From contig CANMCO010000012.1 in NCBI GenBank assembly GCA_947496355.1, forward strand, positions 9,705 to 73,704: DNA of 64,000 nt, in the 5' to 3' direction. Origin of the DNA: an uncultured Aquimarina sp. Its GTDB lineage: Bacteria; Bacteroidota; Bacteroidia; Flavobacteriales; Flavobacteriaceae. Of this stretch, positions 7,754-7,825 are shown in pieces. A model generated the notes under the pieces. That model did not search any database. It saw nothing but the letters and a program-made list of their open reading frames with translations, and had not been told where the DNA came from. Positions within the stretch are counted from its first letter, which is position 1, and every line of letters begins with the position of its first letter. The translations under genes and the position numbers were made by a program.

Positions 7754-7776
7754 GTGCCTTTTCTCGGAAAAGGCAC
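7754..7776. promoter_or_regulatory. Palindromic candidate operator (core TTTTC-N3-GAAAA)
   Basis: gtgccttttc-tcg-gaaaaggcac perfect 10-bp inverted repeat with no U-tract; same core at 23241-23253. Confidence 0.55.
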
Positions 7777-7817
7777 TATCACTTTTCTGGCATTTACATT
7801 TCTATACGTGTAATCCT

Positions 7818-7825
7818 TATATTTG
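7818..7825 (+). promoter_or_regulatory. Bacteroidota -7 promoter box for the peptide pair
   Basis: TATATTTG matches TAnnTTTG, 22 nt before the ATG at 7848. Confidence 0.6.

Follow-up and report, generated by a model that had tools for sequence, protein, structure and literature searches.

The DNA-binding domains of the AraC/XylS family usually read asymmetric 17-20-bp sites via the two HTH motifs of a monomer, and most family members are activators. The palindromes described below were found beside regulator genes in a 64,000-nucleotide stretch of DNA, referred to here as the window. They resemble the known AraC/XylS activator sites (AraC I1-I2, RhaS/RhaR, MelR, XylS, the MarA marbox), which are about 17-24 bp long, lie upstream of or next to the -35-equivalent, and are often tandem with a phasing of about 21 bp. 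As in those systems, the regulator gene adjoins its putative targets, and the output domain of the regulators is of the HTH_18/AraC type. However, the promoters in the window are of the Bacteroidota type (-33/-7 TAnnTTTG), and many of the sites are near-perfect palindromes. The regulators also differ, since those of the AraC/XylS systems are soluble proteins with a cupin or receiver-type ligand domain, whereas those in the window are single-pass membrane proteins with a predicted extracytoplasmic TPR sensor.

The hybrid two-component systems (HTCS) of Bacteroides, which belongs to the same phylum, share with the regulators in the window the embedding in the membrane, the outward sensor, the C-terminal AraC-type DNA-binding domain, and the nearby targets. 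However, Pfam searches detected no histidine-kinase or receiver domains in the regulators studied here, a TPR array takes the place of the beta-propeller/Y_Y_Y sensor, and the putative targets are peptide and toxin genes instead of polysaccharide utilisation loci. ToxR, TcpP and CadC are likewise single-pass membrane proteins that place a cytoplasmic domain on promoter DNA upstream of the core promoter, often at tandem sites. The topology of the present regulators is reversed in comparison, with the DNA-binding domain located C-terminally after the TM helix, and this domain is of the AraC type and not of the winged-helix OmpR type.

The RRNPP systems of Firmicutes (PlcR box, Rgg/ComR boxes) are similar in that a TPR-type sensor is fused to an HTH, the gene for an exported peptide adjoins the regulator gene, a palindromic box has a fixed position upstream of peptide and weapon genes, and paralogue-specific boxes limit cross-talk. 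Nevertheless, we did not class the present system as RRNPP-type quorum sensing, because the TPR domain is predicted to lie outside the cytoplasmic membrane, where peptide import would be unneeded, and because the HTH is AraC-type instead of XRE-type. The peptides differ as well, as they carry GG leaders of the kind cleaved by C39 exporters. We claim no homology to the RRNPP systems, and peptide sensing is a hypothesis here.

To our knowledge, little of the gene regulation in the Flavobacteriaceae has been mapped, and the known pairs of operator and regulator in the family are very few. Full-text searches of the literature did not find the regulator family, the cassette or the site described; a survey of graspetides (PMC8939145) mentions TPR proteins, whose role is unclear, for other peptide loci only.

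A transcription-factor site upstream of a promoter is ordinary, and the interest lies in the module that it reveals. The sites beside about 100 membrane-anchored AraC-type regulators of marine flavobacteria are most likely where these regulators switch genes on. With about 100 natural regulator/operator/promoter triplets, two fixed geometries and clade-specific operators, a specificity code becomes testable, and the triplets may serve as orthogonal parts for Bacteroidota genetic tools.

Sites, promoter boxes and genes in the window

The sites and the genes around them are listed here in the order of their coordinates.

6012-7724, plus strand: regulator 1, a TPR-TM-AraC protein with signal/anchor, TPR array (predicted to be extracytoplasmic), one TM helix and cytoplasmic AraC-type HTH
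7753-7777, no strand: putative operator 1, GGTGCCTTTTC-tcg-GAAAAGGCACT, with core TTC-N3-GAA at 7761-7769
7818-7825, plus strand: candidate -7 box TATATTTG of the peptide promoter, Bacteroidota-type, with a family-wide peak at its offset
7848-8363, plus strand: two GG-leader peptide genes of cassette 1 (7848-8090 and 8145-8363), lant_leader_L1a matches of 24.0 and 24.9 bits
9542-18479, minus strand: two-gene RHS toxin operon (14946-18479 and 9542-14926), putative distal target, with Pfam RHS_repeat, DUF6443 and Peptidase_M23
18628-18635, minus strand: candidate -7 box TACATTTG for the RHS operon; the operator centre is 45 nt off, and a cTTG has -33 spacing
18669-18697, minus strand: putative operator at the RHS promoter, core TTC-cgt-GAA at 18676-18684, within a 13-pair inverted repeat
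20369-21185, minus strand: three GG-type micro-peptide genes (21045-21185, 20751-20906 and 20369-20527)
21306-21313, minus strand: candidate -7 box TATATTTG for the micro-peptide genes, with the centres of the tandem operators 45 and 67 nt off
21354-21362 and 21376-21384, no strand: putative tandem operators TTC-aag-GAA, 22 nt apart
21479-23197, plus strand: regulator 2, a TPR-TM-AraC paralogue, 37% identical to regulator 1
23238-23257, no strand: putative operator 2, CCGTTTTC-cct-GAAAACAGG, with perfect arms GTTTTC/GAAAAC
23300-23307, plus strand: candidate -7 box TATATTTG; operator 2 is centred 53 nt away
23476-23875, plus strand: two GG-leader peptide genes of cassette 2 (23476-23655 and 23675-23875)

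Both regulators are 570-aa proteins that start with a hydrophobic segment, continue with a TPR array and a TM helix close to residue 386, and end in an AraC-type HTH. PF12833 (HTH_18) matched residues 481-564 of both proteins with 40.1 and 46.7 bits, above the Pfam cut-off of 33.6, which makes them members of the AraC/XylS family. Regulator 1 also matched TPR_2 (30.6 bits, cut-off 27), and its TM helix spans approximately residues 386-404 (hydrophobic 19-mer at residue 386). Because the TPR array sits between the N-terminal hydrophobic segment and the TM helix, about 183 residues before the C-terminus, it is predicted to lie outside the cytoplasm. The peptides of cassettes 1 and 2 have Lys-rich leaders that end in GG, or in AG in the case of the peptide encoded at 23476-23655, and three of the four leaders exceeded the cut-off of 22 bits for NCBIfam lant_leader_L1a.

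An earlier note on this DNA had described a TTTTC-N3-GAAAA palindrome at the same distance from a TATATTTG box downstream of both regulators. We found TTTTC-tcg-GAAAA at 7759-7771 (centre 7765) with the box at 7818, and TTTTC-cct-GAAAA at 23241-23253 (centre 23247) with the box at 23300. The distance is 59 nt from start to start, or 53 nt from the centre, in both spacers, and the DNA around the two sites is as unrelated as had been stated, with 16/46 positions identical between palindrome and box. The two further sites of the note are also present: TTTC-aag-GAAA, centred at 21358, has the minus-strand TATATTTG at 21313-21306, and the site centred at 18680, which reads TTC-cgt-GAA, has the minus-strand TACATTTG at 18635-18628, each 45 nt off. 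While all these sites are real, the TTTTC/GAAAA wording was narrower than the element: what is conserved is the core TTC-N2/3-GAA, the arms are specific to each clade, and paralogous loci usually have the element as TTC-N2-GAA.

The sites have further features that the note had not described. Site 1 is the core of the longer palindrome 7753-7777 with arms of 10-11 bp, which lies 29 nt past the stop codon of regulator 1; the box at 7818 lies 23 nt ahead of the ATG. Operator 2 lies 41 nt past the stop codon of regulator 2. The palindrome and 'actaattatatttga' around the box at 23300 are kept in three orthologous loci (L054, L061 and L065), and the intervening sequence diverges. Between the micro-peptide genes and the divergent regulator 2, a second TTC-aag-GAA is present at 21376-21384, 22 nt from the site centred at 21358, and the two tandem operators surround the palindrome GAAAACACA-c-TGTGTTTTC.

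In Bacteroidota, sigma-A promoters have a -7 element TAnnTTTG and, about 19-21 nt upstream, a -33 element TTTG/TTG. Strict TAnnTTTG boxes, as matches to this consensus, are present at 7818 and 23300 and, on the minus strand, at 21313 and 18635. A correctly spaced -33 TTTG or cTTG accompanies both minus-strand boxes, and the -33 element is weak at both plus-strand boxes. A scan with the sigma-70 consensus gave 102 matches vs 95.9 expected and was uninformative; the organism uses Bacteroidota-type promoters. Nothing credible was found with Rfam in 18000-24000. In the whole genome (5.03 Mb, 33.8% G+C), TTTTC-N3-GAAAA occurs 49 times, with TATATTTG within 300 nt on either side in 3 of the 49 cases. 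Two of these three are the equally spaced sites of the window.

Immediately after the -7 box of cassette 1, TTCTGGAA (TTC-tg-GAA) is found at 7826-7833, over the expected start site, and the similar TTCCCGGAA follows the box in locus L042. The copy at 7826-7833 could be a second, repressing site, or could be due to chance. In cassette 2, the peptide ATG lies 176 nt past the -7 box, compared to about 30-50 nt in the three orthologous loci, and about 140 nt of extra sequence are inserted in the leader within 23308-23475. There may be another promoter inside this stretch, and the box at 23300 is possibly not the sole promoter of the cassette 2 peptides.

Spacing between site and promoter across the regulator family

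We collected 142 non-redundant TPR-transmembrane-AraC paralogues from this genome and 18 relatives, and oriented the loci by tblastn. The genome itself encodes 14 full-length regulator paralogues. The regulator was found in 17/30 relatives searched, with up to 20 copies per genome, and in 38/200 other genera of the same family, each represented by one genome. A GG-leader peptide gene follows 102 of the 142 paralogues, typically 100-160 nt past the stop codon, and about half of 20 loci sampled from other genera have the layout of regulator, palindrome and peptide. A well-supported clade of 15 paralogues has no downstream peptide gene (for example L020-L022, L035, L048, L050 and L053, and C1:357849 and C1:663430 in the genome under study). 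Its members have either lost the peptide partner or control another target.

The TTC-N2/3-GAA core was present in 69/102 regulator-peptide spacers, compared to 11.4±3.0 (maximum 20) in dinucleotide shuffles. It was also present in 8/40 paralogues without a peptide gene, and 10% of 130-nt genome tiles contain it as background. The offset from the start of TTC to the strict TAnnTTTG was 57 nt in 17 N2 sites, and 57 nt (5 sites) or 58 nt (9 sites) in N3 sites. These sharp peaks, with almost nothing elsewhere in the histogram, place the palindrome centre 53-54 nt from the box. The earlier note had made its proposal depend on positional enrichment over the AT-rich background, and such enrichment was found: core and strict box at the fixed offset occurred in 32/102 spacers, vs a shuffle mean of 0.02, although shuffle statistics overstate independence in loci that share descent. 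Grouped at 50, 60 or 70% protein identity, the loci with the fixed spacing fall into 9, 16 or 22 clusters.

With a genome of 34% G+C and a core in one of ten tiles, an AT-rich palindrome may come to lie near an AT-rich box by chance. We rejected this reading, which appears vanishingly improbable, on the grounds of the offset peaks and the shuffles, of the conservation of the element in orthologues despite diverged flanks, of its presence in other genera, and of the divergent layout described below.

Profiles anchored on the sites read tCgaaATTC-NN-GAATt.cGa for the N2 form and TctgttTTC-NNN-GAAaaCAGactA for the N3 form. In both, the -33 region is rich in T, the box stands at +52 from GAA, and the ATG follows at about +85-90; family-wide, the distance from box to ATG is 20-35 nt. 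C/G is conserved at ±8, and the promoter-side arm is longer and more conserved. For the two clades that occur in the window, the consensus is (GTCTG)TTTTC-N3-GAAAA(CAGAC). Clades without the TTC core have other palindromes at the same 53.5 nt, mainly (GTTGA)nATTTATAAATn(TCAAC), and ATTTATAAAT palindromes are found at 53.5 nt in other clades and in other genera. The core promoters of the 53-nt class have weak -33 regions.

Many spacers (for example L042, L023, L026, L052) also contain a weakly conserved motif, approximately ttttCAG-n3-aTTTaAAag, 10-25 nt upstream of the operator. The clade of L118, L121, L126 and their relatives has longer-armed palindromes (for example ACCTCATTTTG-aa-CAAAATGAGGT) that lie about 120 nt upstream of the peptide ATG, a geometry unlike that of the 53-nt class.

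A second geometry was observed on the strand divergent from the regulators, where 36 loci had an offset of 43 nt from GAA to the box and 29 loci one of 64/65 nt; the co-directional strand of the same loci showed no such peak. These promoters have tandem sites 21-22 nt apart, with centres 45 and 67 nt from the box, and a conserved cTTG at -33. In both geometries the site is thus fixed in phase upstream of, or abutting, the -35-equivalent. The window pair at 21354/21376 matches the divergent layout exactly and is kept in all three loci of regulator 2 orthologues, where the N3 letters vary but the gap to the box is 40 nt each time. Both minus-strand sites of the earlier note, centred at 21358 and 18680, fit this 45-nt layout. 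In the genome under study, the 43-nt offset was found in 15 cases vs a mean of 4.4 per offset.

The 15 cases include seven elsewhere in the same genome (C9:96611-102200), where consecutive GG-leader peptide genes each have a TCGAAATTC-NN-GAATAC operator with a TATGTTTG box at the 43-nt offset. After this array come a C39-peptidase ABC exporter and two TPR-AraC/peptide cassettes.

The palindromes might also be merely the intrinsic terminator hairpins of the regulator genes, with an incidental distance to the promoter. Both window sites lie 29-41 nt past a stop codon, and 7753-7777 does resemble a terminator, as a G+C-containing hairpin with 10-11-bp arms just past the stop codon and a moderately T-rich tail. 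It is the top terminator-like match in 5500-24500 (11 pairs, 5 G-C, tail ATCACTTTTC, -15.4 kcal/mol). However, site 1 is an outlier with its 10-bp arms and its folding energy; site 2 (23238-23257) forms a weak hairpin (-4.5 kcal/mol, 2 T in 8) and does not qualify, and the family element usually has neither a stable hairpin nor a T tract. Among 68 downstream sites, the perfect arms were no longer than 4 bp in 36, the median folding energy was -3.6 kcal/mol (32-33-nt window), and only 2 had the properties of a terminator, which 7753-7777 has in part.

Further properties of the element are not those of a terminator. The letters TTC/GAA are conserved beyond mere pairing, in other clades this position is taken by all-AT palindromes, tandem copies have a 21-22-nt phasing, and the fixed phasing to the -7 box would be unneeded. 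At divergent promoters, the TTC-N2/3-GAA sites cannot be terminators because they lie between divergent genes, where none is needed. Judged by its weak arms, conserved letters, all-AT versions, divergent locations and helical phasing, the family element acts as DNA and not as a terminator, and we consider the terminator reading very unlikely. The 7753-7777 hairpin may in addition terminate the regulator 1 transcript.

The probable reader of the sites and the proposed direction of control

The operator class is strongly clustered on the HTH-domain tree. The N3 form, which arose at least in 3-4 clades, is present in 11/11 members of the regulator-1 clade and in 4/4 members of the regulator-2 clade, and the clades with AT-type palindromes are separate and basal. 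In 29/31 loci, the proximal upstream site had the same N-class as the downstream site. The arms of the two sites flanking one regulator, compared over 14 positions outside TTC/GAA, matched at 8.87 positions, vs 6.58±0.33 in permuted pairs, and 0 of 2000 permutations reached the observed value. This likeness within loci argues that the binder differs by locus and is common to the sites that flank one regulator. The sites are conserved, fixed in phase, and co-vary by locus, and the adjacent regulator would be the economical candidate for the binder; linkage alone could produce part of the co-variation signal. The N2 and N3 spacers do not constitute a strict specificity code, because the distal tandem sites in N2 loci mix the classes (11 N3, 8 N2) independently of the regulator.

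The operators could instead be read by a different protein, either a dimeric regulator encoded elsewhere or one linked to the locus, such as the product of the HTH gene at 8476-8751, with the TPR-AraC protein acting through another site or not at all. The near-perfect dyad symmetry of many sites, unusual for AraC-type domains, fits a symmetric dimer of another fold equally well. Moreover, the TTC-N2-GAA core is common to many paralogue clades and could be read by one factor, and the class of the distal sites does not track the regulator. Co-location and co-variation of site and regulator would also be expected if a co-inherited second protein read the sites.

Such a protein would nevertheless have to account for arms that vary by locus and co-vary between the sites flanking one regulator, and for an operator class that follows the HTH tree, including the switch to ATTTATAAAT in other clades. 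Across the 142 loci, the TPR-AraC gene is the only constant neighbour of the site, and an unsystematic look did not show the small HTH gene to be another one. Beside the many near-perfect palindromes there are half-palindromic sites, and the promoter-side arm (GAAaaCAGactA) is longer and more conserved, as would suit an asymmetric reader with two HTH motifs. We therefore consider a different reader unlikely, while giving it some weight.

The reading that we prefer, with a probability of roughly 70% on the sequence evidence, is that the palindromes are operators of a family-wide cis-regulatory design, and that the C-terminal AraC-type HTH of the adjacent TPR regulator binds and activates there. 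The regulator would be anchored in the inner membrane with the TPR array outside. Upstream of the -33 region it would bind a single unit in the 53-nt class and a phased pair of units in the 45/67-nt class, and it would recruit RNA polymerase. The single site, at about -65 from the start site, would drive the GG-leader peptide genes just downstream of the regulator. The tandem sites would drive divergent micro-peptide genes, and regulator 1 would probably also act through this layout on the RHS toxin operon, at a distance of about 11 kb. The outward TPR domain would adjust the activity to a signal from outside, which might be the exported peptides themselves.

Activation is inferred from the position of the site upstream of the core promoter and from the habits of the AraC family. 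As the sequence leaves the sign of regulation unfixed, the adjacent regulator might instead keep the peptide and toxin promoters repressed, with a signal as the trigger for its release, and TTCTGGAA just past the -7 box at 7826-7833, with its counterpart in L042, could block the start site. The main sites, however, leave the core promoter uncovered and lie upstream of the -33 region, the weak -33 of the 53-nt class is as expected for activator-dependent promoters, and activators predominate among AraC/XylS members, so that we regard repression as quite improbable. Autoregulation is not indicated either, because in orthologues the distance between the sites and the -7-like box of regulator 2 itself, TAAATTTG at 21452, is not fixed.

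Probable connection to the RHS toxin operon

At the RHS promoter, the GAA-to-TACATTTG offset of the site at 18676 is 43 nt, as at the divergent promoters. Close RHS orthologues for a comparison of this promoter do not exist; the best match is 34-41% identical, and only the syntenic locus of one relative (G004) was informative. Its RHS gene (L143), with only 34% identity in the N-terminal 400 aa, is found about 10 kb away from two regulator 1 orthologues. Upstream of this gene are tandem TTC-N3-GAA sites, and the GAA-to-box offset to TACATTTG is again 43 nt. The link between regulator and toxin may be older than the toxin itself. In this relative (G004:C1:630000-646119, containing L143, L019 and L003), the RHS operon is convergent with regulator-1-type cassettes, as in the window.

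The arm of the RHS site, GAAACGGAAC, is identical at 8/10 positions to that of site 1 (GAAAAGGCAC) and at 4/10 positions to that of site 2 (GAAAACAGGT). This greater similarity to site 1 suggests regulator 1 as the controller of the toxin operon. The earlier note had proposed a positioned site for the TPR-AraC proteins that may co-regulate peptides and toxin, and the comparison supports this proposal through the fixed distances, the HTH clades, the co-varying sites and the RHS gene of G004.

The shared control site would link exported GG-leader peptides to the RHS toxin operon, and it suggests how flavobacteria might couple peptide signals to antagonism. A tentative and rather doubtful extension is a peptide-signalling circuit of Bacteroidota, in which the membrane protein would sense exported GG-leader peptides, its own or those of a competitor, and would activate peptide and RHS promoters via paralogue-specific operators. 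If true, dozens of mutually insulated regulator/operator/peptide triplets per genome would amount to a combinatorial system of kin recognition or of antibacterial weapon control.

The small HTH-like gene at 8476-8751 (minus strand, 91 aa) lies between the peptide pair of cassette 1 and the RHS immunity gene, and an ORF fragment similar to it is found upstream of an RHS homologue in locus L136. This gene could encode a second regulator of the toxin operon.
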